DNA from: a bacterium
GTDB lineage: Bacteria > Patescibacteriota > Saccharimonadia > CAILAD01 > GCA-016700035
Length of the DNA: 64,000 nucleotides
NCBI GenBank assembly: GCA_016700035.1
Contig: CP064998.1
Coordinates: 727,551 to 791,550 of the forward strand
Direction: 5' to 3'
Below the pieces are notes generated by a model. It was not told the DNA's origin, made no database searches, and was given only the letters and a program-made list of their open reading frames with translations. Of the stretch, positions 5,116-30,548 are shown piece after piece; position 1 is the first letter of the stretch, and each line of letters opens with the position of its first letter. Position numbers and translations under genes: made by a program.

Positions 5116-5146
5116 AAAAACGCCCAAGACGAGCTTGGGCGTTTTT
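5116..5146 (-). terminator. Intrinsic terminator hairpin (A5, stem cgcccaag/cttgggcg, T5). On the minus strand it sits immediately 3' of the tRNA-Glu remnant (attL), so it is probably the ancestral tRNA-Glu terminator.
   Basis: Sequence aaaaacgcccaagacgagcttgggcgttttt forms a perfect 8-bp GC-rich stem flanked by A and T runs, so it is bidirectional in form. It directly abuts the 19-bp tRNA 3'-end repeat. Confidence 0.6.
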
Positions 5147-5164
5147 GGTGACCCCACGGGGAAT
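5146..5164. repeat. attL: a 19-bp direct repeat (tggtgaccccacggggaat) identical to the 3' end of tRNA-Glu at 30474-30492, T-arm 3' half plus acceptor stem plus CCA.
   Basis: An exact 19-mer occurs at both coordinates. Flanks diverge immediately on both sides. The partner copy lies inside a tRNA next to a serine recombinase gene. Confidence 0.7.
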
Positions 5165-5259
5165 ACACTGTATAACTTCCTAAAAATGCTCGAAACAAGT
5201 TTCTGCGCGTTTTTTTTCGTTAGCGAACCCCTGCGGGGTTCGGCTCTCTCGCGAGAGCT

Positions 5260-5302
5260 ACCAAAGAAAAAGCCCGAGACAAGCTCGGGCTTTTTCTTTG
5301 GT
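5260..5302. promoter_or_regulatory. Perfect 19-bp-arm inverted repeat (accaaagaaaaagcccgag / ctcgggctttttctttggt, 5-nt loop). It is a sequence relative of the 5116-5146 terminator and belongs to a cluster of three palindromes (5230-5302) just inside the element end.
   Basis: The arms are exactly complementary. Nearby are the palindromes gaacccctgcggggttc and ctctcgcgagag. It could be a bidirectional terminator, or an oriT or recombinase/repressor binding region. Confidence 0.45.
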
Positions 5303-5424
5303 GAGCTCTCGTGTATTTGGGTGGAACACCCTGGAGGACGATCTCATACAATTATACAGGAATCTTGTGGAGCTGGGGGTTGAGTATCATGATGGTAAAG
5401 TCTACCTAGCCGATCTGGAGGAAG

Positions 5425-5898
5425 ATGATGTTTAGGAGACACACTAAGCGATACCAAACTGACCTGTTCAATCAGAACACATTCGATAAACCGTTTTTAC
5501 GAGATTTACACAACTGCCGAGAAAGCCTGATTATAGAAAGCCCGTTTATACGATCAAAGCGAGTTGAGGCTCTAATGCCCATACTCTCTAGGCTCCGCAG
5601 ACGTAATGTAAAAGTGACTATCAACACTCGTAACCCTATTGAGCATGATTATGAGTACCGACTGCAAGCCGAGCAGTCTATTGAGATGTTCCAAGCCCTC
5701 GATATTCAGGTACTTTATACGGTACGCCATCATAGAAAACTAGCAATTATTGACCGCTCAGTCATTTGGGAGGGTAGCCTTAATATTCTCTCTTATTACG
5801 ATAGTTGTGAGATAATGAGGCGGACAGCTTCTGCATATGATGCAGAAAGGCTGATTAAATTTATTGGACTGCAAAAGTATTTGCAGCGTGTGAGTTAA
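5425..5898 (+). CDS. Phospholipase-D superfamily single-HKD nuclease (Nuc-like endonuclease), 157 aa.
   Basis: The motif HxKx4Dx6GSxN is present as HRKLAIIDRSVIWEGSLN. The ~155-aa single-HKD size is typical of Nuc-family nucleases on conjugative plasmids. Confidence 0.65.
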   Translation: MMFRRHTKRYQTDLFNQNTFDKPFLRDLHNCRESLIIESPFIRSKRVEALMPILSRLRRRNVKVTINTRNPIEHDYEYRLQAEQSIEMFQALDIQVLYTVRHHRKLAIIDRSVIWEGSLNILSYYDSCEIMRRTASAYDAERLIKFIGLQKYLQRVS

Positions 5899-5902
5899 AA
5901 CT

Positions 5903-6139
5903 ATGTTAGACAAGAATGATTTTCAGAAAGTAAATCTATCCAAGGATGAAGAAGCTATAGCCAAGGCTATTAACTTGTTGAAGTACCATGACCCAGAGAA
6001 CGCAACCAGGGAAAATGCAATCTCGTACCTTGAATATATGTTCACAGCCGCAGAGTGGGCCAGCAAGCAAACTGATCTTACTTTTGATGACTTTTACGAA
6101 AAATATAGGGCAGAACAAGCAAAGAAATCTGGCAGTTAA
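5903..6139 (+). CDS. Hypothetical small acidic protein (78 aa).
   Basis: ORF immediately downstream of the PLD gene on the same strand. No recognisable motif. Confidence 0.3.
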   Translation: MLDKNDFQKVNLSKDEEAIAKAINLLKYHDPENATRENAISYLEYMFTAAEWASKQTDLTFDDFYEKYRAEQAKKSGS

Positions 6140-8721
6140 CCTGCGACTTCTTCAATTCCTAATCCTTGAGTGACAAGCTCAGGCTCTTTGGTAGCCTCCT
6201 CTTTAGATGTCTTGGGCTTACTGACTGGTTTGGTTTTCTTCGGTTCCTGTTTCTTGGCAAATGTTTCTTGTGAATGCTTTATAGCCCGCTTCGCAATCTT
6301 CACACTACCCTCATCTTCAAGTAATAAAGTTTGACCGGATAACGGTTCTTGAGAACGAACGGCAGACAACTTGGCATAGAAGTTATAGGCTGGTAAGTTA
6401 CTCATCTCGCCTGGCTCAATATACGGTGCAAATAACGGCAGTAGTAACCGTTCATCTTCAGGGTTACCACTCCTAAAACTAATGACTGTACCGACATTGG
6501 CTAAGATTATACTGACCATCTGTTGGTCTTTCTGCTGTGAAGTAGATTGCTCAGCCATGACCATGAACATTTTATATTTCCTCGCCTCAGATAGCATCTG
6601 TACAAATGAAGCGGTGGCAAAGTTTTGGAACTCATCAACATACAGATAGAAATGACGACGTTCTTTTTGAGGTATGCGAGCCCGGCGCAGACTTGCCAGC
6701 TGGAGTTTAGCCAGTACAGTAATACCAAACAGCTCTGAAGTATCTTCACCAAGCAGCCCTTTAGAAAAGTTACAAATCAGTATTTTGCCACTATTGATAA
6801 TGTCATCAAAATCAATTGTAGACTTTGGCTGTTCAAGCACTTGACGAGCAGAGGCCGAGAATAGAAATCGACCAATCTTAGCCGTAATACCGGCTGCCAT
6901 CTTTACTTTCTGCATATCACCAGCTTTGCCAAGTTCATTCTTCCAGAAGTTAATCAGGTTTTTGTCTTTTAGGTTCTTGAGCACCGCTTTTCTATACTTC
7001 GTGTCATTGAGTAAATCAAAGACCGTAAATAAGGTCGCATCCTCAATTGTTAAGGCCGTCTGAATGGTGTTACGTAGGACATATTCAATACGGTGTCCGC
7101 CAGTATCTTCCTCAGAGAATATTTTACGGAACACTGATATGACCGACTCCGTAATAAGGTCTTTCTCTCTAAGCAGCTCATTTCCAGAGATACCAGGCGT
7201 CAGTTCCAAGAGATTAAGCCCAAGCGGGTACTCTAGGTCGTCAGGATTAAAGTAGACTACATCATTCACTCGTTCTGGCGGTACATGTCTGAGTAGCGTT
7301 TCCGCCATGTCACCGTGTGGGTCAACCACGGCTAAGCCTTTCCCACTTTCCATATCCTGCACAATCGAGTACTGCATGATGGTCGTTTTACCGTTACCCG
7401 TACCACCAATAATATAGACGTGGCGTTCACGCTCAGCTTCAACTAAACCAATTGGTGTCTGAACTCCATGGTGAATATTCTCACCTAAGATTACATCAAG
7501 CACCTTGCTTTGCTTCAGCGAAACTGGTGCTGGCAAAGTTCGGCTTAATGAAGTAATCAGGTTATCTGTTTTACTGATGCTACTTGAGGGAAAGTGATAC
7601 AAACTCGCCACTTCAGCAGCCGACAATATGAGTGATCGTTTTTTGAACAGACTCGGTAGTCGCACATTGGCCAGCCTTTTCTGATAACCCGCTATCAATG
7701 GTAATCGTAATTTGGTGCGCAGTGCCTGATACGGCGGCATCGAGTAGCCGTCAAGAGCCGATCGTAGCGCCTCAAGCTGCTGTGTAGCGTGGTCACTGCT
7801 AGCCAGTACCCGCAAGCTAACCTGGAATAATGGCTGGGTGACTTTTTGGTGCATTGATTCCATCAGCTCCAATTCAAAGGCGCTGAGGGTTCTAGCTGGT
7901 CGCTGGCGTTTTTGGACTTGCGCCTGGAACGCAGCGTCCTTACTCGACTTGTCCTTATAGTAAGAGGAGGTAGAGCCGTTATAGACTTCGCCGATTGTAT
8001 CAGTCACCCCAATCATGGCACTACCCAGTAGTTCGCTTATCTTACCAACCTTAGAGAAACCACCCAAGGAAACTTTGCGAAGTATATCTTCGTTGCCTAA
8101 TATCCGACGAGACAACCGTGAGGCTTCATTAAGTTTGACTGGAGTCACCACTAACTGCATGGTCAACTGCTCATCGTCACTGAGTTTTGTCATAGCCGCA
8201 GTGACGTAAGACAGTGGGTCATGCTGCTCAAAAGTACGAGTAGACATCAGCGGCAGCACGTAGTGGTGGGCTTGCTTAAATTCAATGACGTTTGCTGGGT
8301 CAAATGGCTGGTAGTCGATAGGTTTTACTTTGGCATCAGGAATGTAGGCAGTAATAGTTTTCTCAAGAATATCTGCTCGTGTTTGCTCAACCTGTATAAG
8401 GTAGCGAATCCCGTCTCGTTTGGTGGAAACTATCTCAAAACTTAGTACTGGCGTTCGATCAAGCAACCGCTCTTTCAGTGAGCGAGCAGCCCGTAAGCCA
8501 TGTATGACCGAAAACAATTGTATGGTCGATTCTGGTGTTTTCTCGAGTTGAGCTGGTGGTGTCAGCTCTAGCCAGACCATTACTCGCCGTTTAAGATAGC
8601 GGCGGTTGATAACTACTCTCACGAGGGCAATAAACCAATAGAGTACAAACAGTAGCAGTAGCCCAGCCAGCACAAACAGACACAAGCGAATTATGGTTGC
8701 GAAATAGGCTGAGGTGTCCAC
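6136..8721 (-). CDS. Type IV coupling protein (VirD4/TraG/TcpA-like ATPase), 861 aa.
   Basis: N-terminal TM helices. Walker A YIIGGTGNGKTT, then AVVDPHGD. Walker B YLYVDEFQNF. The motif ARKYKMFMVMAEQSTSQ is typical of T4CP/TraG-family proteins. Confidence 0.7.
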   Translation of the reverse strand: MDTSAYFATIIRLCLFVLAGLLLLFVLYWFIALVRVVINRRYLKRRVMVWLELTPPAQLEKTPESTIQLFSVIHGLRAARSLKERLLDRTPVLSFEIVSTKRDGIRYLIQVEQTRADILEKTITAYIPDAKVKPIDYQPFDPANVIEFKQAHHYVLPLMSTRTFEQHDPLSYVTAAMTKLSDDEQLTMQLVVTPVKLNEASRLSRRILGNEDILRKVSLGGFSKVGKISELLGSAMIGVTDTIGEVYNGSTSSYYKDKSSKDAAFQAQVQKRQRPARTLSAFELELMESMHQKVTQPLFQVSLRVLASSDHATQQLEALRSALDGYSMPPYQALRTKLRLPLIAGYQKRLANVRLPSLFKKRSLILSAAEVASLYHFPSSSISKTDNLITSLSRTLPAPVSLKQSKVLDVILGENIHHGVQTPIGLVEAERERHVYIIGGTGNGKTTIMQYSIVQDMESGKGLAVVDPHGDMAETLLRHVPPERVNDVVYFNPDDLEYPLGLNLLELTPGISGNELLREKDLITESVISVFRKIFSEEDTGGHRIEYVLRNTIQTALTIEDATLFTVFDLLNDTKYRKAVLKNLKDKNLINFWKNELGKAGDMQKVKMAAGITAKIGRFLFSASARQVLEQPKSTIDFDDIINSGKILICNFSKGLLGEDTSELFGITVLAKLQLASLRRARIPQKERRHFYLYVDEFQNFATASFVQMLSEARKYKMFMVMAEQSTSQQKDQQMVSIILANVGTVISFRSGNPEDERLLLPLFAPYIEPGEMSNLPAYNFYAKLSAVRSQEPLSGQTLLLEDEGSVKIAKRAIKHSQETFAKKQEPKKTKPVSKPKTSKEEATKEPELVTQGLGIEEVAG

Positions 8722-9275
8722 GGGGCGGCTCCTTTCTTATCATGTATGAATGTATAGTAGGCGGCTGATTCTCGTGCAAACGTTCGTTGGCTGACAATAT
8801 TAAGTCCAACGTAGTTCATTTCCGAGATTGTCCATGCGCCAGTCTGACTATTGACGGCAATAACGTAAGCCACGTGTCCCCACTTACCGTTGTCGGACTG
8901 AAAAATCGCTCCGACAGCTGGCGTGTGATTCACTGCATAGCCATCACGAATCGCCCGATCATCCCAGGTATTAGCATCGCCCCACGTGGTTGGAATCGGG
9001 TAGCCTGCCGACAGGCGCATCGAAAATGCCCAGTAGGTACAGTTGCCCCACTCATAGGTATTGCCCGCAACTGGCCCACCCATGTAAAACCCCTGGGATT
9101 CGGCCGCTGCCAGGCTCGGCACATTAGATAGAAACGACACTACGTCCTCGCCCATGGCAAAGACGGCTGCAAACGGCAACGCCACAATAACCGCCATAGT
9201 GGCCAGCACCAGGCTGATCTGTTTTTTAACATTTCCGCCTGTCACCACATTAAGTGCGACCAGGGCTGGATTCAT
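8691..9275 (-). CDS. CHAP-domain peptidoglycan hydrolase (T4SS cell-wall hydrolase, functional analogue of VirB1/Orf14/TcpG), with an N-terminal TM helix.
   Basis: CHAP catalytic pattern GNCTYWA...GYPIP...WGDANTWDDRA...VGAIF...GKWGHVAYV with conserved Cys and His. Positioned between the VirB4 and T4CP genes. Confidence 0.7.
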   Translation of the reverse strand: MNPALVALNVVTGGNVKKQISLVLATMAVIVALPFAAVFAMGEDVVSFLSNVPSLAAAESQGFYMGGPVAGNTYEWGNCTYWAFSMRLSAGYPIPTTWGDANTWDDRAIRDGYAVNHTPAVGAIFQSDNGKWGHVAYVIAVNSQTGAWTISEMNYVGLNIVSQRTFARESAAYYTFIHDKKGAAPWTPQPISQP

Positions 9276-11032
9276 GCGTAGAGCTCCGTCGGGTCAGTGG
9301 TAATCAGCGGATGTTCTTTATCACTGGCCACAACCTTAACAGCAACGTGGTTCTGGTCGGCAATAATCAGGGCATCGCCACGCCCGCAGGTCAGCAGAAA
9401 GTTTTCCTCGTACTCACTCAAATGAAACTCGCTCGCCACATTCTTAATAGTGGTAGTGTCCTGGCGCATGAGAATTCTTAGGCTACTCTGTGAAGCGATC
9501 ACCCGACCATAGTTACTTTTGAGGAAATCATCAGCTTGCTGGGTAACAAACGATACACCGAGGTAGTATTTACGAGCCCGACGGACCAGTCCAGCAATAA
9601 AGCGGGCACTTGGTTCATGCTCTAGCAGTGACCAACCCTCATCAATCACCAACAGTCGCTTTTCGGGTTTTACTTTGACTTGGTTTTGAATGAAGTTAGA
9701 AACAATCAACATCATGATTGGCCTGAGATTAGCCGGCATATCTTTAATGTCAAAAATCACTAAACGGTTATCCAGTTTGATGTTAGTCTGTGAGTTAAAG
9801 ATTTCAGCACTGGAGCCACTAATATATTTCTCTAGCCGTTCACACAGTTGCAATTGACCAAGGCTGTGTAGTTCAGCATACAAATCTTCAAGCAGTGGAT
9901 GTTGCTTCTTAGCTTTTCTGTAGACTCGTAAGATTGCTTTATCGACCGCCGCTTTCTCACGTTTATCCAGTCCCTCCGCCATCAGGTCAATCACGGCCGT
10001 CAGGTCTTGGACGTGCTCAGCCAGGTCAGCTTTAGTGTGAAAAGTGGTTGCTAGGTCAAATGGGTTAATCTTTTGTTTGCTTTTAGCCGACAGTTTGATA
10101 TAGGTACCGTTGACGGTTTCACTCAGTCGTTTATATTCACGCTCTGGGTCAATCACCAGCACTTTCGTGCCTTGCATCAGTTGTCTAAGTATCTCAACCT
10201 TAGTGGTATAGCTTTTACCCGAGCCGGATTGAGCAAACACAATTGAATTGGCATTATGCAAGCTAAAACGATCCAAAATAACCAGCGAGTTATTGGACTT
10301 ATTCACGCCATACAAAATACCGGACTCTTGCACGAGTTCAGATGACATAAACGGAAATGTTAACGCTGCACTGGAGCTATCTAAGTTTCTCTTTTGCGCT
10401 AATTGATCTTCGCCTCTAGGCAAAATAGATTGCAAGGCTTCAAGTTGTTGGTAGCGGGCTACTTTGGAATAAAACAACCGAGCTGACATAGTTGCTTCCA
10501 GTAACTTGGTAGTTTTGTTGAGCTCCTCCAAGCTATCGGCTCGGATAGCTACGTAGATAGACATTTGAAACAGTTTTTCCTGGCCACGTTGGATTTTGTC
10601 TCTCAGTTCAATCGCCGATTCGAGCGGGTCAGTGATTTCTGAGCCAATAATCTTACCAGCTTGCATCATCGAGCGTCTGGTGCTTTCCAGTTCGGTAATC
10701 TTGCGGTGCAGTTTTGGCAGGGCGTGCAAGGCACTGACTTCATACAGATGGTAGCTAATGTCGGTATTGTGGTTGAAGTTAATGATGCTATCCAACCAAC
10801 CGGAACTGGCCGTAAATGGATAGCCAGAAATATAGATCGTCCGCATGTACACACCGTCGATCACGAGGTGGTCAACGTTTTCCTCTAGTCCAGCGTAACT
10901 AAGAGCATCAACGGCATCTTGTTCGCCAAATGCTAAGTTCAGTTCTTTTTGCTTTTCTTGCCTAGTTTTTTGGTAATTTTGCAGTGGTTCCAGCACTTTA
11001 TTGATATCAATCATCGGGGTCTCCTTTCTCAA
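9272..11032 (-). CDS. VirB4/TraC/TrbE-family conjugative ATPase, C-terminal ATPase portion (586 aa).
   Basis: Walker A AQSGSGKSYTTK. LVIDPEREY. Walker B-like RLLVIDEGWSLL. Sized as the C-terminal two-thirds of Gram-positive VirB4 homologues. Confidence 0.7.
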   Translation of the reverse strand: MRKETPMIDINKVLEPLQNYQKTRQEKQKELNLAFGEQDAVDALSYAGLEENVDHLVIDGVYMRTIYISGYPFTASSGWLDSIINFNHNTDISYHLYEVSALHALPKLHRKITELESTRRSMMQAGKIIGSEITDPLESAIELRDKIQRGQEKLFQMSIYVAIRADSLEELNKTTKLLEATMSARLFYSKVARYQQLEALQSILPRGEDQLAQKRNLDSSSAALTFPFMSSELVQESGILYGVNKSNNSLVILDRFSLHNANSIVFAQSGSGKSYTTKVEILRQLMQGTKVLVIDPEREYKRLSETVNGTYIKLSAKSKQKINPFDLATTFHTKADLAEHVQDLTAVIDLMAEGLDKREKAAVDKAILRVYRKAKKQHPLLEDLYAELHSLGQLQLCERLEKYISGSSAEIFNSQTNIKLDNRLVIFDIKDMPANLRPIMMLIVSNFIQNQVKVKPEKRLLVIDEGWSLLEHEPSARFIAGLVRRARKYYLGVSFVTQQADDFLKSNYGRVIASQSSLRILMRQDTTTIKNVASEFHLSEYEENFLLTCGRGDALIIADQNHVAVKVVASDKEHPLITTDPTELYA

Positions 11033-11642
11033 TCAGGGCGGTGTGGATGAGACTCAGGGCCGTTTCAGTCAGCGGTTGAACTTTAGCCTGAACAGGACTA
11101 TAGAAGCTGTAGAACAAATCAAGAATCTCCAAGCTACCAAGCTGGCGAGTGTGCATACCAAGCCGAGACATTCCCTTAGTCACGATGTCTATTTTGAGAT
11201 TGAGTTGCTCTTTAATTAACTCAAAGTCTGTTTTATTGTCAGCAGTGTACGGAATAATCAGGTAGAAGTGGCGGGTCAGGATTTTGTTGCTAGTAATCAG
11301 CGAGCGGATGAACTCATCGTAATTATGTAGTTGTTTTTGGTAGATTTTTTCAGTCTCACCTTTGAGGCGCTCCGCCAGATCTTCCAGGTATTTATCCATG
11401 TCAATCTCACGAGTACGAATCAGGACTTGTATGTTAGTGCCGAGTGAGTTTAAGAAATTCTCGTAGGTGTCTATGATAGCGTCCTGCTCAGTCTCACTTT
11501 TCAGCTCAAAGTTCAGTGCCGATACTTGCAGCACCACTCGGTACTGGTTGTGCGGCAAAAGCAATATACCGTCTCGTACGCCCTTAATAGCGATCTGGGA
11601 CCGAGCGCTACTTTTAGTCCTCGACTTCTGTAAGGCGAACAT
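11007..11642 (-). CDS. Probable N-terminal domain of a split VirB4 (211 aa). It overlaps the downstream ATPase ORF by 26 nt in another frame.
   Basis: 211 + 586 aa is about 800 aa, the size of PrgJ/TcpF/Orf16-type VirB4. The two ORFs are adjacent, on the same strand and overlapping. No independent motif was found in this piece. Confidence 0.4.
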   Translation of the reverse strand: MFALQKSRTKSSARSQIAIKGVRDGILLLPHNQYRVVLQVSALNFELKSETEQDAIIDTYENFLNSLGTNIQVLIRTREIDMDKYLEDLAERLKGETEKIYQKQLHNYDEFIRSLITSNKILTRHFYLIIPYTADNKTDFELIKEQLNLKIDIVTKGMSRLGMHTRQLGSLEILDLFYSFYSPVQAKVQPLTETALSLIHTALIEKGDPDD

Positions 11643-12117
11643 ATAAGGCTCCTTTCTTGGTCATTTCAAATCTTAAATTACTGCCAGGTTTGTTGATGGT
11701 TTCTAGCACTTGGGCAGCATCGTGAAAGGCTAGTTTCGGTAGAGGTGGTACCTTTGCGGCTGTCGTGCTTGTCTGCTCACTTGCATCAGTTTTTTTGATC
11801 GTATATTCTTCTCGGTAATCAGCACTTTTCTGAAATACATAGTGCCGAGGACGCAGGTTATAGCGCAGAATTGTAACCAGCCAGAAAAGCACAATCTTGC
11901 CTTTGATGCGGATAGCCAGGATGCCGGATAGAAGTGCAATCACACTCATCACCAGGTACTTATATATGTTGCCCTCCATAATAGGCGGCAGTATGACAAA
12001 TAGTCCGGCACCAACAAAGATTGGTACGATACATAACACCAGTTGAGAGAAACCCAGGTTACCCATAATCCGATCTTCTACGGTAGTAACTTGGGCGGGA
12101 ACGGCAGTGCTTCTCAT
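11614..12117 (-). CDS. VirB3/PrgI-like small T4SS membrane protein (167 aa, two TM helices).
   Basis: Two hydrophobic helices (IVPIFVGAGLFVILPP, LVMSVIALLSGILAI). Located directly upstream of VirB4, as in Gram-positive T4SS loci. Confidence 0.4.
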   Translation of the reverse strand: MRSTAVPAQVTTVEDRIMGNLGFSQLVLCIVPIFVGAGLFVILPPIMEGNIYKYLVMSVIALLSGILAIRIKGKIVLFWLVTILRYNLRPRHYVFQKSADYREEYTIKKTDASEQTSTTAAKVPPLPKLAFHDAAQVLETINKPGSNLRFEMTKKGALYVRLTEVED

Positions 12118-13947: not shown

Positions 13948-14201
13948 GTTACTCCTCCTTATGTCTGTAATAAATCTAGCACACACTATTGCGTACATGC
14001 AAATTATATTATATACATAAGCAATATAAGGGGTGCGGCGTTGCCGCTTCATTGACAGGTTTGCTACACTAGTAGAGTGAAAGCTAAGATAAAAACTCGA
14101 AAACATAGACCACTTAGGCGTAAATTAGTCAGCTCGAAACTCAAACTTACACCGTACCTTGATATACCGCTCAAGTAGAATCATGACTCAAGGACAAAAC
14201 C

Positions 14202-14265: not shown

Positions 14266-14293
14266 TTGACACTATGCTAAAGCTTGTTATAAT
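14266..14293 (+). promoter_or_regulatory. Second consensus promoter P2 (TTGACA, 16-nt spacer, TATAAT), overlapping the first ATG of the ORF track.
   Basis: ttgacactatgctaaagcttgttataat: perfect -35 and -10 hexamers. This implies translation starts downstream at ATG 14307. Confidence 0.5.
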
Positions 14294-14306
14294 ATTTTTG
14301 AATACC

Positions 14307-16027: not shown

Positions 16028-16110
16028 ACGGCTTGAACACTCCAAGTATAGCGGATTACTTATATTACCAAAAGTTGCCATCTTTAACTACTTTTGGTAG
16101 TATTGATATT

Positions 16111-21683: not shown

Positions 21684-24600
21684 ATGATTAATTCTTCTTA
21701 TGGTACACTGAAAGACAAGGATTTTAAGCAAAGTATGTCTCAGGGTAAATTATATCGGTTCCACATTGGTCAAATCATACAAGCGCTGCGACAAGATGTA
21801 ATCGCACTCCTCAAGAAACTCGCAAAGCAGCCCAGTGTACGGTGGGTCAGAAACAAATTTCATAAGCTACACGTCCGCACCACCCAAAAAGTACATCACC
21901 ATACGACCAAGAAGTTACACGACCAGCTTTACCAGCGGGTTTCACTCTACGCTCGTCACTGGGAGTGGCGCTACCGTAAACATTTCCACGCTATTACAGT
22001 GTCACTGGTTGTTCTTGTGGTGGCCTTTAGCCTTGTCGCCAGCCATAAGCGGGCGTTGGCTAGCAGTGACATGCCGGTTACCGGCTACATAGCTGTTATG
22101 AATACCAACGAGAAAATCTACTTTGGCGGTGATCATGGCAGCAGCGTTACCCTAGATAACTTCACCCGCCAGATGGATGGTCATGCCTGGAGCCAAGATA
22201 TTGGCTGGGTTTCTTTTGGTACTGAGAGTAATCCTCAGGGACCAGTCACGGCTGGGGCTGATGGCGTTTTAAGCGGCAAGGCCAAAGCCCTCAACGTTGG
22301 TACGATCGACTTTGATGACTTTGGGTCGCATGTCGTGGTGTCTGATGGTCAGTTTTCGGGTTATGCCTGGAGTAATGACTTAGGCTGGCTGGATTTCAGC
22401 CATCTTGAAGCAGCCGGCTACGACCCTGATCTCGACCTGCCAGTCAACGCCAGCGATATTAACATCTACAAGAGTGATGGCGGTGCCAGCGTCGCTGAAA
22501 ACGGCTGGAATAATACTAATGGCTTCTTTACCTGGGAGCCCGCCACTGATGAATCTGGCGGTTCTGGTATCTTAGGCTACTGTTTGTATCTTGGCCAAGA
22601 CGAGAATGGTGACCCCGCCAGCAACAAAGGACTGCTTGGTAGTTCACCACTCAACACTAGCGGCAGCTGTCCGTTTGCGGTCCAAGATGCTCAAGTCAAT
22701 CTAGCCACGGCCGGTTATATCGCAACCGCTATGACTACCTCGGATGAACCATATTACCTGCGGATTAAAGCTATAGATAACGCCAAGAACATCTACGACG
22801 GTGAAGCAGCTGGTACCCATTTCCGCTATGACAATACGCCGCCAACCAATCCGGCCTTTATTACTGCTCCATCCCAGTTTGTGGCTTCCAAGAATGTCAC
22901 CTTGACCTGGCCAACCTCTGGCGGTGATGCAGCCCAAGATGCTAACTCAGGTATTAAAGGGCTTCAGTATCGGATTGGTAATAGCGGCACCTGGTACGGT
23001 GATGGCCACAGCGGCAGTCAGAACATCAGCGACCTGCTAGTCAACGATGGTAGTTACACGACCGTTGACCCCATTGATTACGACCAACTGCAAGAGGGCA
23101 ACAACATTGTGGCTTTCCGTACCTACGATGAAGCCGGTAACATTTCAATCGCTAATATTACGACGGTGATTAAGCTCAACACCAGTTCACCGTCAGCGCC
23201 GCAGAACTTGTCAGCCTCACCACCAACTAACACCGTCAACAGCTTCTCGTTTAACTGGTTAGCACCAGCCAGTTTCCAAGGTTCAGTTAGTGCCATTAGC
23301 TACTGTTACACGATTAACGTCGCTCCAACCAGCAGCAACTGTAGCTTTACCGCCCCAGGCGTTACCAGCCTGTCAGCTGGCCCATATGCGACTCAGCCAG
23401 GCAGTAACACCATATACGTGGTCGCTCGTGACGAAGCTGGCAACATTAACTACGCCACCGCCGCCACTGAGACATTCTCAGCCAACACCTCAGCCCCTGG
23501 CGTACCACTCAATGTCGATGTCGCTGATATCAGTGTTAAGAACACCAGCAACTGGAAGCTAACGGTTGCCTGGGAACCACCAACCAATGTCGGTGCTGGG
23601 GTCAGCAGCTACCGAGTGCTGCGCTCGACTGACAACAGTAGCTTTACTCAAGTTGCTACCACTGCCGGTACTAGCTATGTCGATACGGGCTTAAGCCAAA
23701 TCGCCTACTACTACAAGATTCAGGCTTGTGATAGTGCCAATAACTGTGGAGCTGCCAGCGCAACTGCTAGTCAAACACCAACTGGGCGCTTTACCACGCC
23801 AGCTGGCCTGGTTTCCAGCCCATCCGTCACCGTCAAATCCCGCTCAGCTCGTATTACGTGGGCAACAGATCGTAATAGCGACAGTCGTATTCAGCTCGGT
23901 ACTAGCTCCGGCAGCTACTTTGACGCTGAGACTGCCAAGTCCAACCAGACCAAGAACCATGTGATTGAGTTGAATAACCTTGAGGCTGATACTCAGTACT
24001 TCTACAAAGCTCGCTGGACAGATGAGGACGGCAACACTGGTAGCAGCAGCGAACTGGTCTTTAAGACGTTGCCAGCTCCAACCGTCAAAGATGTATCGAC
24101 CAGGCGGATTAACTTAAGCTCGGCAATTGTCCAGTTCACCTCCAAAGACGCTGTTCGGGTAAAAGTCTACTACGGTCCCAACGAGAGCTTTGGTGGTGTT
24201 ACGACCGTCAATACTTCCACCAGTGAATCTGCCTATACCGTCGAACTGGCCGGACTGAGTGACGGCACTAAATATTTCTACAAGATTAATACTATTGACT
24301 CTGACGGCAACGAGTACAATAGCAACCGAATTGACAGCTTCGTGACTCCTGCCCGACCACGGATTACCAATGTCCAGTTCCAACCGGTGACTGGTCAGCC
24401 TACTAGCACCCAGAAAATAACCTGGGAAACCAATGTGGCCTCCACTTCATTGATTCGCTACAAGACCAATGGTGAACCCCAGAAAGAAGTCAGTAACTCT
24501 GAGTTAACCCGCAACCACAGCATCACGATTGAGGGACTACTGGATGATAGTGTCTACAGCTTAACTGCCGAGTCACGGGACAGTTTAGGTAATCTGGCAA

Positions 24601-25004
24601 CCTCCGACGCTCAAACTTTCCGGACCGAACTTGATACTCGCTCACCAGAAGTCAGCCGACTAAAGGTAGAAACATCGATTCGAGGAGTTGGCAGTGACGC
24701 TCGAGGCCAGCTGATCGTGTCCTGGCGGACTGACGAACCAGCCACCAGCCAAGTTGCCTATGACAAGGGTGCCTCTGGCACGAACTACGCCTCCAGTACG
24801 GCCGAGGATGGGGCTTTGACCACCGAACACATGGTTATTATCTCTGATCTCGATACTTCCCAGGTTTTCCACTTGCAAGCCATTTCACGAGATAAAAGCG
24901 GCAACAGCGGTAAGAGTGATGACCGAGCAGCCATTATTGGTCAACCAAGTGATAGCGTCATCGATATTATCCTAGGCACGTTGGAGAGGATATTTGGCCT
25001 ATGA
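21684..25004 (+). CDS. Giant surface-protein paralogue (1106 aa): basic His/Lys-rich leader, TM helix, then Fn3-like repeats. The C-terminal ~1000 aa are collinear with ORF 19..4761.
   Basis: Blocks shared with ORF 19..4761 include GLLGSSP.NT.G.C.FAV..., YDNTPPTNPAFITAPSQFVASKNVTLTWPTSGGDA and the C-terminal SDSVIDIILGTLERIFGL. The leader is ...KLHVRTTQKVHHHTTKKLHDQ... followed by a TM helix. Confidence 0.7.
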   Translation: MINSSYGTLKDKDFKQSMSQGKLYRFHIGQIIQALRQDVIALLKKLAKQPSVRWVRNKFHKLHVRTTQKVHHHTTKKLHDQLYQRVSLYARHWEWRYRKHFHAITVSLVVLVVAFSLVASHKRALASSDMPVTGYIAVMNTNEKIYFGGDHGSSVTLDNFTRQMDGHAWSQDIGWVSFGTESNPQGPVTAGADGVLSGKAKALNVGTIDFDDFGSHVVVSDGQFSGYAWSNDLGWLDFSHLEAAGYDPDLDLPVNASDINIYKSDGGASVAENGWNNTNGFFTWEPATDESGGSGILGYCLYLGQDENGDPASNKGLLGSSPLNTSGSCPFAVQDAQVNLATAGYIATAMTTSDEPYYLRIKAIDNAKNIYDGEAAGTHFRYDNTPPTNPAFITAPSQFVASKNVTLTWPTSGGDAAQDANSGIKGLQYRIGNSGTWYGDGHSGSQNISDLLVNDGSYTTVDPIDYDQLQEGNNIVAFRTYDEAGNISIANITTVIKLNTSSPSAPQNLSASPPTNTVNSFSFNWLAPASFQGSVSAISYCYTINVAPTSSNCSFTAPGVTSLSAGPYATQPGSNTIYVVARDEAGNINYATAATETFSANTSAPGVPLNVDVADISVKNTSNWKLTVAWEPPTNVGAGVSSYRVLRSTDNSSFTQVATTAGTSYVDTGLSQIAYYYKIQACDSANNCGAASATASQTPTGRFTTPAGLVSSPSVTVKSRSARITWATDRNSDSRIQLGTSSGSYFDAETAKSNQTKNHVIELNNLEADTQYFYKARWTDEDGNTGSSSELVFKTLPAPTVKDVSTRRINLSSAIVQFTSKDAVRVKVYYGPNESFGGVTTVNTSTSESAYTVELAGLSDGTKYFYKINTIDSDGNEYNSNRIDSFVTPARPRITNVQFQPVTGQPTSTQKITWETNVASTSLIRYKTNGEPQKEVSNSELTRNHSITIEGLLDDSVYSLTAESRDSLGNLATSDAQTFRTELDTRSPEVSRLKVETSIRGVGSDARGQLIVSWRTDEPATSQVAYDKGASGTNYASSTAEDGALTTEHMVIISDLDTSQVFHLQAISRDKSGNSGKSDDRAAIIGQPSDSVIDIILGTLERIFGL

Positions 25005-26953
25005 GTCGCACCACCCCACCACTGATTGAGGCCAACCACGTCAGTAAAGATTTTGTGCTCAACAACCAAAATCTGAACGTCTTAAAAGACATTAGCTTCA
25101 ACGTGCCAGATGGTAGTTTCACAATTATTCATGGTCCATCGGGCAGCGGTAAGACTACTCTGCTTAACACCATTACTGGTATGGAAGCGCCAACCTCTGG
25201 GGTAGTTAAGTACGAAGGCAAAGATATCTATGAACTCAGTGAGAGTGAACTAGCTCATTTTCGGGCTAAGACCATGGGTATCGTCTACCAGTCCAACTAC
25301 TGGGTGCCATCGCTCAACATCCTGGAAAATGTTGCCTTGCCGCTCTATTTCTTAGGCTATGACCGGGCCAACGCTGAACGTGAAGCCCAAGAGTCGCTGC
25401 GTCGAGTTGGCATGGAAGAACACAAGCACACGCTGCCAATCCTGCTATCTGGTGGTGAGCAGCAGCGAGTGGCAATGGCTCGGGCGCTGGTCAGTAATCC
25501 AAACTATATCGTGGCTGATGAGCCAACCGGCAATCTAGACAGTAAAAACGGTGACAATATTATTGCGCTGCTGCAATACTTCCACCAAAAGCTCGACCGC
25601 ACGATTATTTTAGTCACCCATAACGAAAGCTACTTGAAATACGGCACTCAGGTACTCAGCCTCAAAGATGGCAAGATTGAAGAATCTACCTCAAAGAGAC
25701 CGAAACAGGCCACCAGCACCGCCCTACCAACTAACTCGGCCAAGTTTATGTCGGTGATTCAAAACCTCAAGCCAATTAAGTTACGCATGTTGACCCATAT
25801 GGCGCTGGCCAACCTAAAGTTTAAGCGTTTCCGAAGCAGCCTGACGATTTTAGGTGTCACCATTGGTATTGGCTCCGTCTTTTTGCTGTTGTCGTTTGGC
25901 CTGGGGTTGCAATCGCTCGTCCAAAAGCAGATTATTGGCACCGATTCAGTCAAGGTGATCAATGTGTCCAGTGCCAACTCAGAACTGCTGAAGCTGGATG
26001 ATACGGCTCTAGGGCGTTTTAATAACATCGGTGGTATTGAGAAGATTGGGAAACAGAATACATCAGCTGGGGCGTTTAAGATAGATTCAGCCAATTCGGA
26101 TGCCGTAGTTTACGGAGTAGATAAGAACTTCCTGGAGCTCAGTAACGTTAACCTCGCAGCTGGCAAGCAACTCAATCCGGATTCATCGAGTGAGTTGCTT
26201 ATAACCAAGTCACTGCTGAATTCAATGGGCTACGAAGATGCCAACAAAGCCCTCCAAAAACAAGTCAGTGTAAGTTTGAAGCTGGATGATGGTGAGAAGT
26301 CATTCGATCAGGCCTTTACGATTGTCGGCGTGATTGACGCTGGTAACAGTTCAGCCCTCTACATTCCGCAAGCCGACTTCTCGGCCATTGGCGTGAAAGA
26401 ATACAAACAGGTTAAAGTAGTCGCTCGAGACCAAAATGATGTAGGCACTATCCGCCAACAGCTAGAGACATTTGGCTACCAAACCTCCTCACCCCTCGAT
26501 ACCCTAGCCCAGGTCAACCGCTTCTTTAACTTCTTTAACGTGATTCTAGTCGGCTTTGGTGGCATTGGTATGTTTATTGCCGTAATTGGTATGGTCAATA
26601 CCTTAACTATTGCACTGGTGGAACGAACCAAAGAGATTGGCCTGATGATTGCTCTAGGCGCTCGCCGTCAAGACATGCGTCGACTGTTCATTACCGAATC
26701 GCTTCTCTTGTCACTCATCGGTGGCTTCATTGGGGTAATTGCGGCTATCGGCTTTGGCGCAGTGATTAATGAACTCCTGAAATACGTGTCAGCTCGTCGT
26801 GGTATTACCGAGAGTTTCTCACTATTTGCCACACCGATCTGGCTAATTCTACTGACTATCGGTTTTATGTGCGGAGTTGGCTATGTAGTTTCTTATCTTC
26901 CAGCCAGACGAGCAGGACGCATCAACCCGATTGACGCTCTGCGGCGGGAGTAA
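25001..26953 (+). CDS. MacB-type ABC transporter: a fused N-terminal ATPase and C-terminal FtsX-family permease (650 aa). Translationally coupled to the giant protein (ATGA overlap).
   Basis: Walker A GPSGSGKTTLLN. ABC signature LSGGEQQRVAMARAL. Walker B IVADEPTGNLD. Then one TM, a large extracytoplasmic domain and three C-terminal TM helices, which is FtsX-like. Confidence 0.75.
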   Translation: MSRTTPPLIEANHVSKDFVLNNQNLNVLKDISFNVPDGSFTIIHGPSGSGKTTLLNTITGMEAPTSGVVKYEGKDIYELSESELAHFRAKTMGIVYQSNYWVPSLNILENVALPLYFLGYDRANAEREAQESLRRVGMEEHKHTLPILLSGGEQQRVAMARALVSNPNYIVADEPTGNLDSKNGDNIIALLQYFHQKLDRTIILVTHNESYLKYGTQVLSLKDGKIEESTSKRPKQATSTALPTNSAKFMSVIQNLKPIKLRMLTHMALANLKFKRFRSSLTILGVTIGIGSVFLLLSFGLGLQSLVQKQIIGTDSVKVINVSSANSELLKLDDTALGRFNNIGGIEKIGKQNTSAGAFKIDSANSDAVVYGVDKNFLELSNVNLAAGKQLNPDSSSELLITKSLLNSMGYEDANKALQKQVSVSLKLDDGEKSFDQAFTIVGVIDAGNSSALYIPQADFSAIGVKEYKQVKVVARDQNDVGTIRQQLETFGYQTSSPLDTLAQVNRFFNFFNVILVGFGGIGMFIAVIGMVNTLTIALVERTKEIGLMIALGARRQDMRRLFITESLLLSLIGGFIGVIAAIGFGAVINELLKYVSARRGITESFSLFATPIWLILLTIGFMCGVGYVVSYLPARRAGRINPIDALRRE

Positions 26954-27090: not shown

Positions 27091-27906
27091 TTAGATATCG
27101 ACGAGTGTCATTAGCTCATCATCGTCCAGAGCTGTCCAGATCAGGGCTTCACTATCCATGTTATGTAGTGCTTTTTTGGTTGTGGTATAGACCTCCAGTT
27201 CTTCATCTGGTTCAAGGTGACTAATGACACCTTTGACGATACGGCGTATCATACGCTCCACACTGGCAGTTTCAGCAATGAACAAGAGTTTTGGTGGTTC
27301 TGTATTTGTAGCCTCCCAGCCGCCAGTATCAAAGAAGTTGATGTAGGCAGCTATACGCTGGAATAAGGGGCGTTTTTCTTGGGCGGCTGGTACCACATCA
27401 AGAAAGAAGCGCTTAGTGGTGTCTTTGATAGTCATTGATATAAAGGCATCGGGCGGCAGCTCGGGAAAGTAAGTAAATCGGCTCATGTCACGGCGCAGGT
27501 AGGCTTTGAGTTCAGGGTAGCGGGATTTGAGGGCTACAACGGCTGAAAAGACGTCTATATGATGAGTAATGGTGGGTTCTTTCAGGGATTTATCACGGTA
27601 GCTGGCTTTGATGACTTTCTCAGTAATGTAATCATGCTTGGGCAGACTGGCCAAGAAACGCAGACCTTTGGGTGTTAGAAAGTAGGCTGCTGGTAGGCCC
27701 CTAATCTTCGATTGGTTGTCTAGTTTGCTGCCCACTAACTCGTGTTTTATAAGGACCGAGAGCTTTTTATATAACGTGCTGTCATTTATTTGCAAGACTC
27801 TAGCAAGTAATACCCGACTACCAAACCGATATTTATACAGAACTTCTAATATGTCTATTTGACTTGGCTTTATGGCTGATCGACCATCTATCTTCTTCAT
27901 TATCAC
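27091..27906 (-). CDS. Winged-helix DNA-binding protein, possibly replication-relaxation family (element maintenance/replication), 271 aa.
   Basis: N-terminal wHTH-like segment SQIDILEVLYKYRFGSRVLLARVLQINDSTLYKKLSVLIKHELV. Assignment is tentative. Confidence 0.3.
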   Translation of the reverse strand: MIMKKIDGRSAIKPSQIDILEVLYKYRFGSRVLLARVLQINDSTLYKKLSVLIKHELVGSKLDNQSKIRGLPAAYFLTPKGLRFLASLPKHDYITEKVIKASYRDKSLKEPTITHHIDVFSAVVALKSRYPELKAYLRRDMSRFTYFPELPPDAFISMTIKDTTKRFFLDVVPAAQEKRPLFQRIAAYINFFDTGGWEATNTEPPKLLFIAETASVERMIRRIVKGVISHLEPDEELEVYTTTKKALHNMDSEALIWTALDDDELMTLVDI

Positions 27907-28382
27907 TCACTCGCTTCATTTCTATATATTTATATACAAGAAAGAGAGAAAAAGAGCAATAGACTACAGATGTAAATAAGGGTAAATAGGTGGAATATCG
28001 GGATTCCATGTAGTTTGAACAACGAAGTAAATAATTAGTATTGCTTTTTATTTTAATTAGTAATACTATTTATATAGAGGTTGTACGTTAACAATTCGGC
28101 TAATGAGAGGTAGTAAATAGGAGGGTATATGGTATCAACTAAGGTGTATCATGTCTTTACGAATGAACAGGATGAATACGTAGAGGATTATAGTAAGGCA
28201 CTGGTACTGTTTACTAAATGGGTTACCGAATACGGTAGTGCCCGACTTTACGAAGAGACGTTTGAAGACGATGAACTTCAGAGTGAAGACTGTATAGGCA
28301 GCTTCGGTTATTTTCCGTGGTAACTGATACGGATATACGCAGATAGTAGCAGAAAAGCAGATTATGCGTTAAAATAGGACTA

Positions 28383-28586
28383 ATGTCCAGAAAGATAGTC
28401 AGTATGCAAGTCAAGGTTTCAGAAGCGGTTAGAAAGCGCGCTAGAGCTGTTGCAAAAGATAATGGAAAAACACTCAATGAGTTTATTATGAGCCTGTTCT
28501 CCAATGCTGGAGATAAAGAACTTAAGAAACTCGTAGAACAAGAATTAAAAAGCAGACCAAAACCAGGACGACCCTGGGATAAGTAA
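28383..28586 (+). CDS. Small ribbon-helix-helix/CopG-like DNA-binding protein (67 aa).
   Basis: VKVSEAVRKRARAVAKDNGKTLNEFIMSLF is an RHH-type pattern (beta strand, then a helix with TLNEFI). Confidence 0.4.
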   Translation: MSRKIVSMQVKVSEAVRKRARAVAKDNGKTLNEFIMSLFSNAGDKELKKLVEQELKSRPKPGRPWDK

Positions 28587-28608
28587 TTATTAGCCGGATT
28601 GTTAGCGT

Positions 28609-28818
28609 ATGGGCCTCTTTATACATGGAGGGTATATGTCGAGGCCAAAAGGTAGCAAGAACAATTCAAAACCGCTCGTTGTTGAAACGTTTTCATACAC
28701 GACCGAGCAGCGGATTACGTTGTTTGCTCACCTGATTGTCGAGAAAATACTTGAAGATCAGCGCAATGGGCGTATTTTCCTCAAAGTGATAAGGCAAGAA
28801 GATGTCCCAAAACAGTAA
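28609..28818 (+). CDS. Hypothetical 69-aa protein immediately upstream of, and overlapping, the recombinase gene. It is a candidate recombination directionality factor.
   Basis: The position is its only support. No recognisable motif. Confidence 0.25.
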   Translation: MGLFIHGGYMSRPKGSKNNSKPLVVETFSYTTEQRITLFAHLIVEKILEDQRNGRIFLKVIRQEDVPKQ

Positions 28819-30514
28819 ACCTCGCAACGGACTACTTGCCATACGGGTGTCCTCTGATAAACAGGGGCTGGACGGTGACTCACCGGAAGCTCAACGTGAG
28901 CAAGGTGAACGCTACGCCGCTACACACAATATTATTATTACCGAAACTGTCATCCTGATGGAGTCTGCCTCGCACGAAGACCAGCCAATGCAGGAAGTTA
29001 TCAACCGCTGCAAAGACAAGAGTAAAGGCATTGAGGTAGTGTTAATTAAATCTATTGACCGCTTTACTCGTGGTGGCGGTGACTACTATTCCCCCTTAAA
29101 AAGACAGCTAACCAAACTTGGAGTTGCTCTTGAGGATATGTACGGTGTCATTGGTAAACGACAAGTTAATACGTTGGAACACACTGGCTTCAAATACTAC
29201 TGGAGTGAGTTCAATCCTACGCAGAAATCCGAATACTTAGAAGCGGAACGAGCTAAAGACGAAATGCGCGACATTATGAGCCGTATGATCGGTGCCGAAA
29301 TCCGCTACACCCAGCTTGGTTACTGGATGCGCCAGCCGCCGTATGGTTTTATTAGTCAGAAAGTTGATACCAAGAATGGTAAACGCCTTATCTTGCAACC
29401 ACATCCCGAAGAATCACCGTATATGATACGACTGTTTGAGATGAGAGCCGAGAGTATTTACAGCGACCAGCAGATCGCTGATGAACTCAATCGACTTGGT
29501 TTTAGAACCCGCATCCGCTATGTGCGTGATAAATATGATCGGACCAAGATTGTCAGACAAATCGGCGGACATAAAATGACCGCTAAAATGGTTGACCGCT
29601 ACGTACACAACCCGATATATGCTGGTGTGATTAAAGAGAAATGGACGTACGATAAACCAGTCAAAGCCCAGTTTGACGGTCTGGTATTGCCAGCACTGTA
29701 TAACGCAGCTAATCGGGGCAAGTACATCATTAAGATTGACGCTCAAAACGTCGTAACGCTGTACCGCAAACAACCGCCAGCACACTTGACGAATAAGAAT
29801 ATGCACAATCCAGAGTTTCCATACAAAAAGGTGGTGACATGTTCAGAGTGCAAGAGAACATTACTTGGCAGTGCCTCACGTGGTAAAGCCGGTAAATACT
29901 ACCCAGCCTACCATTGCAGTAAGGATGGCCACTATTTCCGTGTCCCAAAGGCTGTATTCGAGCAAACCATAGATGATGTTGTCAGACGGCTTGAGATTGC
30001 CCCAGAAAAGCTAGCCGACCTTATGAGCGCTATTGAGCAAGCATGGCTTGAGAAACAAGCTCAGACCGCCCAGGACAACCAGAAAGTCCTAGAACAACGC
30101 CAGGCTATTGAAACGCAGATTAAGGCTGGAGTAGACCGCATGAAACTCGTTACCAGCAAAACGGCAATTAAATACATAGAGGAGGATATTGAGGGGCTAG
30201 AAAAACAGCTTACCCAGCTAGATGAACAACAAGCTAATAAATCGGCAGAAACGGTAGATATGGAAGTCGTGTTGCAATATGCAAGATACTTGGTGGAACA
30301 CCTAGCAGATATACTGCTTCACCTCCGTAATCCGCTCCGAAAAGCAGCCTTTTTTGGCGCTATCTTTAACGCAGTACCAACTTACGAAGATTTAGTTGGT
30401 GGAACACAAAAAAACAGCCCGATACCAGGGGTAAATGAGCTGTTTCGTATTGCGTTGTCGCCAAATCCTAATATGGTGACCCCACGGGGAATCGAACCCC
30501 GATTGCCAGATTGA
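28802..30514 (+). CDS. Large serine recombinase (570 aa). Its 3' end overlaps the tRNA-Glu gene.
   Basis: N-terminal resolvase catalytic motif LLAIRVSSDKQ, with the Ser nucleophile. Recombinase domain. Zinc-ribbon CSECKRT...YHCSKDGH. C-terminal coiled-coil. The last ~13 codons are antisense to the tRNA. Confidence 0.8.
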   Translation: MSQNSKPRNGLLAIRVSSDKQGLDGDSPEAQREQGERYAATHNIIITETVILMESASHEDQPMQEVINRCKDKSKGIEVVLIKSIDRFTRGGGDYYSPLKRQLTKLGVALEDMYGVIGKRQVNTLEHTGFKYYWSEFNPTQKSEYLEAERAKDEMRDIMSRMIGAEIRYTQLGYWMRQPPYGFISQKVDTKNGKRLILQPHPEESPYMIRLFEMRAESIYSDQQIADELNRLGFRTRIRYVRDKYDRTKIVRQIGGHKMTAKMVDRYVHNPIYAGVIKEKWTYDKPVKAQFDGLVLPALYNAANRGKYIIKIDAQNVVTLYRKQPPAHLTNKNMHNPEFPYKKVVTCSECKRTLLGSASRGKAGKYYPAYHCSKDGHYFRVPKAVFEQTIDDVVRRLEIAPEKLADLMSAIEQAWLEKQAQTAQDNQKVLEQRQAIETQIKAGVDRMKLVTSKTAIKYIEEDIEGLEKQLTQLDEQQANKSAETVDMEVVLQYARYLVEHLADILLHLRNPLRKAAFFGAIFNAVPTYEDLVGGTQKNSPIPGVNELFRIALSPNPNMVTPRGIEPRLPD

Positions 30515-30548
30515 AAATCTGATGTCCTAACCGTTAGACGATGGGGCC
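30474..30548 (-). tRNA. tRNA-Glu (anticodon UUC) with encoded CCA. Its 3' 19 nt are duplicated at 5146-5164.
   Basis: A manual cloverleaf can be drawn. Acceptor GGCCCCA/TGGGGTC. D-arm GTCT..GGAC. Anticodon stem TCAGA/TCTGG with loop TTTTCAA. T-arm CGGGG TTCGATT CCCCG. Discriminator A plus CCA. Confidence 0.75.

Follow-up and report, generated by a model that had tools for sequence, protein, structure and literature searches.

Serine integrases are the main enzymes for the insertion of large DNA but are thought to avoid tRNA genes. We analyzed a 64,000-nt stretch of a Saccharibacteria genome (GenBank assembly GCA_016700035.1, contig CP064998.1, positions 727,551 to 791,550 of the forward strand; below, the window, with positions counted from its first nucleotide). 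It contains a 25.3-kb island of conjugative type with a gene for a large serine recombinase (LSR) at one end, where it overlaps a gene for tRNA-Glu(UUC). We consider it likely that the island was inserted in the 3' end of this tRNA gene by its own LSR.

The closest described cases of an LSR beside a tRNA gene are computational, as is the one presented here. Mageeney et al. (2020; PMC7192596) found that tRNA or tmRNA (t(m)RNA) genes were used in 44.5% of the tyrosine-integrase elements, compared with 14 of 297 serine-integrase elements, and stated that t(m)RNA use by serine integrases 'has not been reported previously' and that experimental proof was needed. Among the Prochlorococcus tycheposons, 27 of 937 have an LSR (bioRxiv 10.1101/2020.12.28.424599). 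The island in the window is like these LSR tycheposons and the TIGER-flagged serine-integrase t(m)RNA elements in the position of its LSR.

In its conjugation genes the island is like the integrative and conjugative elements (ICEs) of Firmicutes that carry an LSR (the Tn5397/TndX type, the CTn elements of Clostridioides difficile, and the streptococcal ICEs that target rumA). It shares with them a monoderm-type type IV secretion system (T4SS), a VirB4 of the CD1110 family and the modular ICE plan. The Firmicutes LSR ICEs use protein-coding genes as targets and often disrupt them (PMC5357655), and LSRs generally have short common cores (PMC10654092). In contrast, the element in the window uses a tRNA 3' end and rebuilds it with a 19-bp copy of its own, the relaxase is of the MOBC class, and the host is a Saccharibacterium. 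The tyrosine-integrase islands of the Islander class likewise insert into the 3' part of a tRNA gene, supply the sequence that restores it, and leave a piece of the original tRNA at their far end. The island differs from that class in having a serine rather than a tyrosine recombinase, and no Phage_integrase domain was matched in the island open reading frames (ORFs) scanned, which were all of the main non-overlapped ones. The T4SS genes also resemble the 'chromosomal' clusters of Patescibacteria surveyed by Quinonero-Coronel et al. (2025; PMC12102498), which have an MPF-FATA-related VirB4, T4SS_pilin and VirB2-like pilins, and a type IV coupling protein (T4CP). In that survey most clusters were without a relaxase and regarded as co-opted, MOBC was the commonest relaxase found, and the words integrase, recombinase and tRNA are never used. 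Unlike the surveyed clusters, the one in the window lies inside an island that is bounded by repeats and has a relaxase and an integrase. Neither this LSR clade nor any Saccharibacteria ICE was described in the literature that we searched. In plan the element is an ordinary ICE, and its enzyme family is ordinary too; what is unusual is the clade-wide choice of target, in an understudied phylum.

The features that define the ends of the island are the following:

5116..5145, minus strand: displaced intrinsic terminator of the tRNA-Glu gene, host-derived (A5, hairpin with a 12-bp stem, T5; from folding and a terminator scan)
5146..5164, no strand: attL copy of the 19-bp direct repeat, the displaced 3' end of tRNA-Glu (exact-match search)
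28802..30514, plus strand: large serine recombinase, 570 amino acids, catalytic Ser17 in RVSSDKQ, last 41 nt antisense to the tRNA (Pfam, profile, Foldseek)
30474..30492, no strand: attR copy of the 19-bp direct repeat (exact-match search)
30474..30548, minus strand: tRNA-Glu(UUC), the reconstituted target gene (ARAGORN; the identical tRNA is present in sister strain L087)

The exact 19-mer TGGTGACCCCACGGGGAAT was found at the attL and attR sites, and there was no third copy in the window with up to two mismatches allowed. The identity is maximal, extending by 0 nt on either side. We calculated that 0.0075 exact direct 19-mer pairs are expected by chance per 64 kb, and shuffled sequence gave a 19-mer match in 0 of 100 cases. 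The right copy, as read off the sequence, consists of the last 3 nt of the T-loop, the 3' strand of the T-stem, the 3' strand of the acceptor stem, A73 and the encoded CCA. The LSR ORF runs into the tRNA gene from the opposite direction and covers 30474-30514.

Directly after the left copy on the minus strand there is a hairpin with a U-run that folds strongly (minimum free energy -23.7 kcal/mol, z = -3.7) and that was also called by the terminator scan. Downstream of the intact tRNA, within the recombinase gene, there was no comparable terminator for approximately 370 nt. This arrangement fits displacement of the terminator by the insertion. An earlier note on this DNA had reported the 19-mer at two positions, a chance expectation of about 0.01, the identity of the right copy as the 3' end of a minus-strand tRNA-Glu(UUC), a left copy followed by what looked like the displaced original terminator, and a recombinase gene overlapping the tRNA. 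Each of these held on reanalysis, the terminator also by comparison with equivalent hairpins in two relatives (L087 and L038), and its remark that a serine recombinase at a tRNA 3' end would be notable agrees with the literature (14 of 297 elements; PMC7192596).

The right boundary was located by comparison with sister strain L087, represented by a 701-kb JGI contig that is 94.6% identical in nucleotide sequence across the right flank. L087 has the identical tRNA-Glu with its own terminator hairpin directly after it and no LSR or island beside it, and homology with the window sets in at precisely 30474. A right junction identical to that of the window is also present in SRR11674018. In the species of L087, where the right flanks are 99.9-100% identical, the same tRNA-Glu site is polymorphic (samples SRR26424594, SRR26425194, ERR10643342-8 and JGI 3300056999). 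At least five different sequences abut the CCA end in short contigs of this species, and several of its contigs break exactly at the CCA end. One of the junctions in this species belongs to L089, which has a different LSR island at the same tRNA-Glu site, with an LSR of approximately 49% identity. As judged from these assemblies, the polymorphic occupancy of an identical tRNA-Glu site indirectly supports excision and indicates that the LSR family is active at population scale. L087 also has, 165 bp past the 3' end of its intact tRNA-Glu (9575-9628), a terminator hairpin and then TGGTGATCCCAAGGAGAAG, which is identical to the repeat at 14 of 19 positions and is probably a fossil att site of an earlier integration.

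The layout of the left end recurs in more distant relatives. L027, L038 and L069 each have a second, in-register copy of the tRNA end 9.5-11.6 kb upstream (of 13, 13 and approximately 23 nt, respectively), and in all three a gene for a PLD-like protein follows the left repeat at a distance of 143 bp to 1.4 kb, as it does in the window. L038 also resembles the window in having a terminator hairpin ahead of the displaced tRNA fragment at attL. In L002 and L004, whose LSRs are 78% identical to the one described here, there was no second repeat within the 10 kb available.

The assignment of the 570-residue ORF to the large serine recombinases is based on domain and profile matches. It matched PF00239 (Resolvase; 31.9 bits, gathering cut-off 23.3) and, at residues 202-283, PF07508 (Recombinase; 23.5 bits, gathering cut-off 21.1). 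The XisF model matched residues 151-483 with E = 2.6e-9, below its equivalog cut-off. A profile of 14 homologues matched the catalytic domain of the TP901-1 integrase (E = 3.5e-5) in an alignment that pairs RVSS with RVST and makes Ser17 the likely nucleophile. Ser17 and residues of the R8/Q21/D86-R87/R90 type were invariant across the 14 homologues, as were C347, C350, C372 and H371/H377. There was no Pfam zinc-ribbon match in the LSR, and phmmer gave no match to the LSR in the PDB. An AlphaFold model made from 14 sequences was of low confidence (pLDDT 58.9). It predicts elements in the expected succession: an alpha/beta domain and a long helix, then a mixed domain, beta-hairpins at 355-380 and a pair of long helices at 401-478. 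Its best Foldseek matches were cryo-EM complexes of full-length serine integrases (E ~1e-11, with low TM-scores), followed by LSR catalytic domains. The earlier note had described a catalytic RVSSDKQ motif, a zinc ribbon and a coiled-coil; the catalytic assignment stands, and the other two were verified only in part, through the invariant Cys and His residues and the low-confidence model.

The identification of the LSR as the tRNA-targeting enzyme comes mainly from its family. There were 1628 relatives in the database at E<=1e-10. We scanned one genome per species and obtained 80 loci with LSR identities of 47-93%, nearly all from metagenome-assembled genomes of Candidatus Saccharibacteria/Saccharimonadales, together with one complete oral-taxon-488 genome. 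The survey covered 10 kb upstream of each LSR, and most far ends of the elements were beyond its reach. The LSR ORF ended 11-197 nt inside a convergent tRNA gene at 68 of the 80 loci; one of these loci is on CP128407.1, at around 633-656 kb. At 10 others the contig stops at the 3' end of the LSR gene, and at one (L035) the tRNA is masked by Ns. At the remaining locus (L005, 4450-4700) there is only a 14-nt tRNA remnant, TGGTGACCTCAAGA, followed by host core genes (DUF520, guanylate kinase, RecA, RecX, EF-P). L005 is the only assessable locus without a tRNA after the LSR. We considered it as an attP or circular form and rejected this, given that RecA, EF-P and the other core genes come after the LSR; decay of an att site or a misassembly may account for it.

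The tRNA genes used were those for Glu-UUC (26 loci), Glu-CUC (16), Leu (14) and Lys (9), and also for Gln, Arg and Asp. When the LSRs were grouped by average linkage at 70% identity, each cluster was pure for one tRNA amino-acid family (Glu, Lys or Leu), as expected of site-specific integrases. The C-terminal tails of the LSRs are specific to subgroups and are antisense translations of the differing tRNAs (alignment A1). A MOBC homologue was present at 69 of the loci, and 65 of these homologues are on the strand opposite to the LSR, 0.3-1.7 kb upstream of it. A 69-residue ORF that overlaps the LSR start had a homologue at 56 loci, and T4SS genes were visible within the 10 kb at at least 20. 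No relatives matching the LSR profile were found in IMG/VR viral contigs.

From these comparisons the LSR appears to be a member of a Saccharibacteria-wide clade that is placed against tRNA 3' ends and in which the target follows the LSR subclade. Since the homologues hold the same convergent, overlapping position so consistently, we credit the LSR as the integrase and not as a bystander, and we regard the family evidence as decisive for a tRNA-targeting enzyme. The TIGER and tycheposon cases are sporadic and without experimental proof, whereas the Saccharibacteria clade is consistent. Further differences are an integrase ORF that continues through the att site, the pairing of the LSR with a MOBC relaxase, and the T4SS genes that accompany at least 20 of the 80 loci.

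The same results bear on whether the repeat was made by some other enzyme, either a tyrosine integrase since lost or the rve-family transposase of the island, with the LSR as a passenger, or is a chance match. Long repeats at targeted tRNA 3' ends are classically a mark of tyrosine integrases (PMC7192596; PMC4383910), which speaks for such an origin. Against it, the island ORFs scanned gave no tyrosine recombinase match, the LSR overlaps several tRNA species across the clade with the target following the LSR, the chance expectation is low, and the position of the repeat coincides precisely with the tRNA end. As for the transposase, the target duplications left by DDE enzymes are short and show no specificity for tRNA genes. 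We give these origins almost no credence and retain the LSR as the source of the repeat.

Three further observations concern tRNA-associated sequences in related genomes. In L098 (21553-23413), a 613-residue ORF of the resolvase family overlaps the 3' end of a tRNA-Pro gene in the same architecture. In L045 (18588-18792), a tRNA-Pro gene has a 19-nt copy of its own 3' end 128 bp away. The Saccharimonadales contig DATIIP010000017.1 has two elements of the family (L004 and L038) approximately 17 kb apart, one in tRNA-Glu and one in tRNA-Lys.

The interval between the repeats is 25,328 bp, has a GC content indistinguishable from that of the flanks, and contains an ICE gene set:

5220..5350, no strand: element-internal palindromes with a 19-bp-stem hairpin and the motif TTTGGTGAGC...CCTGGAnGACGA..ATAC (from folding; same layout in L069)
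5425..5898, plus strand: PLD-like (PLDc_2) protein, the conserved left-end gene (Pfam; homologues beside the left repeat in L027, L038 and L069)
5903..6139, plus strand: conserved 78-residue ORF (homologues after the PLD-like gene in L027, L038 and L035)
6136..8721, minus strand: type IV coupling protein, VirD4/TraD-like, 861 residues (Pfam TrwB_AAD_bind and TraG-D_C; partial NCBIfam TraD/CD1115 matches)
8691..9275, minus strand: CHAP-domain cell-wall hydrolase (Pfam)
9272..11032, minus strand: VirB4-like conjugation ATPase (NF045971, CD1110 family, 352.8 bits, cut-off 325; Pfam P-loop_TraG and AAA_10)
11007..11642, minus strand: conserved 211-residue T4SS-cluster protein (L013, L015 and L016 have homologues in their T4SS clusters)
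11614..12117, minus strand: PrgI-family membrane protein (domain match)
12114..13604, minus strand: 496-residue protein with an N-terminal T4SS_pilin domain (domain match)
13609..14106, minus strand: VirB2/TrbC-like pilin (domain match)
14274..15191, plus strand: target protein of a diversity-generating retroelement (DGR), Lcl_C C-type-lectin fold, variable repeat at 15016-15190 (domain and repeat matches)
15330..15716, plus strand: 128-residue ORF with a CdiA_C toxin-like domain, cargo (domain match)
16033..17331, plus strand: AAA_14/DUF4143 ATPase, cargo (domain match)
17866..20341, plus strand: DGR core, with bAvd (17866-18222), template repeat (~18470-18610), two short variable-repeat ORFs and reverse transcriptase (19226-20341) (domain and repeat matches)
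20338..21585, minus strand: rve-family DDE transposase, a likely insertion-sequence insertion (domain match)
21684..26953, plus strand: cargo operon for a 1106-residue fn3/Ig surface protein and a fused ABC-MacB/FtsX exporter (domain match)
27091..27906, minus strand: putative relaxase, Replic_Relax (PF13814 = MOBC; 33.1 bits, cut-off 25.3)
28383..28818, plus strand: two small ORFs upstream of the LSR, of 67 residues (28383-28586; weak ribbon-helix-helix similarity) and 69 residues (28609-28818; overlapping the LSR start) (sequence similarity)

The VirB4, the coupling protein, PrgI, the pilins, the CHAP hydrolase and the MOBC-type relaxase all lie between the tRNA-end repeats with the integrase gene at one end, and the earlier description of the island as ICE-like is therefore upheld. 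The equation of PF13814 with the MOBC class follows Coluzzi et al. (PMC5357655). The LSR was the only site-specific recombinase found in the ORFs scanned, and there were no phage structural domains (capsid, terminase, tail) among them.

The stretch at 5220-5350 includes a hairpin of -39 kcal/mol (z = -8.8). In L069, a distantly related element, the same layout of hairpin and motif is found between attL and the PLD-like gene (130-330). By its conservation this hairpin-rich stretch is a possible origin of transfer (oriT) or a control region. The hairpin at 5263-5310 with TGGTGAGC was considered as a fossil attL and rejected because the same layout is conserved inside L069.

Some aspects of the gene content suggested that the repeats might bound the sum of two elements, for example a small mobilizable element with the relaxase and LSR beside an older T4SS/DGR island. 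The mosaic of gene orientation and cargo in the island is compatible with such a tandem composite, no T4SS gene lies within 10 kb of the paired LSR and MOBC genes in L002 and L089, and fossil att-like sequences are found near the tRNA-Glu of L087. The window itself has no third copy of the repeat, and the left end with the PLD-like gene, the 78-residue ORF and the coupling protein recurs beside attL in independent elements that have the same LSR family at their other end. The internal TGGTGAGC motif, being conserved in L069, is a feature of the element rather than a relic att site. We therefore think a composite very improbable and treat the interval as a single island.

A course of integration can be proposed for this island from its two ends. 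In the predicted circular form, attP would lie across the last 13-14 codons of the LSR gene and include a 19-nt copy of the tRNA 3' end, with the junction ...CAAATCCTAATA-TGGTGACCCCACGGGGAAT-ACACTGTATAAC...; the predicted attB junction is ...GCTTGGGCGTTTT-TGGTGACCCCACGGGGAAT-CGAACCCCGATTGCC.... By analogy with the family, LSR dimers on attP and on attB in the tRNA 3' end would synapse, cut a central dinucleotide within the 19 shared bases, rotate and religate; the 2-bp staggered break would fall somewhere in those bases. The copy brought by the element would rebuild the tRNA at attR, and the original 3' end with its terminator would be moved 25.3 kb to attL, which is the arrangement seen in the window. 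The LSR ORF would be intact in both states, with a tail of ...MVTPRGIEPRLPD before the stop when integrated and a predicted ...MVTPRGIHCITS when excised. One speculative consequence is that readthrough of the integrase ORF into the convergent tRNA could couple integrase expression to the state of integration.

The most plausible reason for the 19-bp length of the identity is that the tRNA must be restored between the crossover and the CCA, rather than that the enzyme requires homology. If all members of the family cross over at the same position, the Lys elements, with repeats of 13 nt, would confine it to the last 13 nt of the tRNA. This stretch contains the non-palindromic AC (30484-30485) of CCCC-AC-GGGG. 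A directionality factor is probably required for excision, and the small conserved ORFs that precede the LSR are candidates; from their position and similarity they could encode either such a factor or a regulator. After excision, the divergent MOBC relaxase, the coupling protein and the monoderm-type T4SS (VirB4, PrgI, pilins and CHAP) would transfer the element, as expected from the gene content.

Several results weigh against this account. The earlier note had proposed that a related genome without the island would have an intact tRNA followed by the terminator. L087 provided the intact tRNA with a terminator of its own and homology from 30474, but no empty site carrying the left flank of the window was found, and support for the left boundary is architectural for this reason. 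The left flank of L087 is not syntenic with the window, and the orthologues of the left-flank FG-GAP gene (52-58% identity) are neither syntenic nor beside tRNA-Glu. The note had also proposed a search of reads for attP and attB products. Scans of viral contigs with the 19-mer, which matched only phage tRNA arrays and one contig end, and a scan of one metagenome gave no circular junction or excision product. With an attB-like pattern, the metagenome scan returned only an unrelated tRNA-Glu (L086). Exact-protein look-ups of the LSR, of a 100% identical entry (P0001) and of the left-flank protein returned no record. No oriT was identified in the island. An attP/attB identity of 19 bp is long for an LSR, and dyad scoring of the reconstructed attP and attB of four elements gave no consistent centre; the best was a weak 11 of 22 positions, at the AC in CCCC-AC-GGGG. 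The low confidence of the LSR model belongs here as well.

Some of these points would suit an island that was integrated at tRNA-Glu by the LSR and has since become fixed, with the T4SS kept for an epibiotic lifestyle and the LSR and repeats as relics. The published survey concludes that co-option applies to most T4SSs of Patescibacteria and conjugative potential to only a minority (PMC12102498), the rve transposase gene lies inside the island, no excision product appeared in the scans, and L005 is an example of decay, with an LSR beside a tRNA remnant and host core genes. The transposase gene and the co-opted view of these T4SSs leave the present-day mobility of the copy in the window unproven. 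Yet the LSR ORF is intact, the repeat is perfect at 19 of 19 positions, and the ORFs for the relaxase, coupling protein and VirB4 are full-length; in the sister species the occupancy of the identical tRNA is polymorphic and contigs break there. We judge a fossil or domesticated island to be unlikely and favor an element inserted by an LSR that has kept its conjugative gene set.

It is tempting to extend these findings to the phylum, although we think the following less probable than not. There may be a phylum-wide LSR clade that has specialised on the 3' ends of tRNA genes, switching among those for Glu, Lys, Leu, Gln, Arg, Asp and Pro, with a gene-restoring attP in the last LSR codons, and the MOBC elements that it integrates may hold a substantial share of the Saccharibacteria T4SSs now classed as 'chromosomal, relaxase-less, co-opted'. 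If so, many such T4SSs, including those in cultivated oral TM7 strains, would be active conjugative elements. A large, consistent clade with readable attL and attR pairs would provide many natural test cases for the use of tRNA genes by serine integrases, and candidate integrases whose targets, the conserved tRNA 3' ends, are present in every genome. Saccharibacteria and other bacteria of the Candidate Phyla Radiation (CPR) are hard to manipulate genetically, and a native ICE with integrase, relaxase and T4SS is a potential genetic tool for them. Such an ICE also bears on whether the T4SS of CPR bacteria moves DNA or only serves host attachment.

The remaining observations concern the cargo and other repeats in the window. 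The DGR (14274-20341) has one adenine-rich template repeat and five variable repeats, at 15016-15190 (plus), 15838-16030 (minus), 17435-17621 (minus), 18667-18841 (plus) and 18994-19168 (plus). Four of the five are within very short Lcl_C-like ORFs of 73-80 residues. The CdiA_C-like ORF is fully overlapped by an antisense ORF of 134 residues (region 15320-15724), and no immunity gene was identified for it. The 1106-residue fn3 protein (21684-25004) is 60% identical over 864 residues to the C-terminal part of the left-flank FG-GAP protein (19-2613), and in relatives ABC and MacB genes follow the FG-GAP gene, as in the fn3 and ABC-MacB pair of the island. The other exact repeats of at least 19 nt in the window were all ordinary: internal repeats of the FG-GAP gene, template and variable repeats of the retroelement, similarity between tRNA genes, and a 106-bp tandem repeat. 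The tandem repeat (54485-54719) has 2.2 copies with 92% matches and separates the tRNA-Gly and tRNA-Arg genes of a tRNA cluster.

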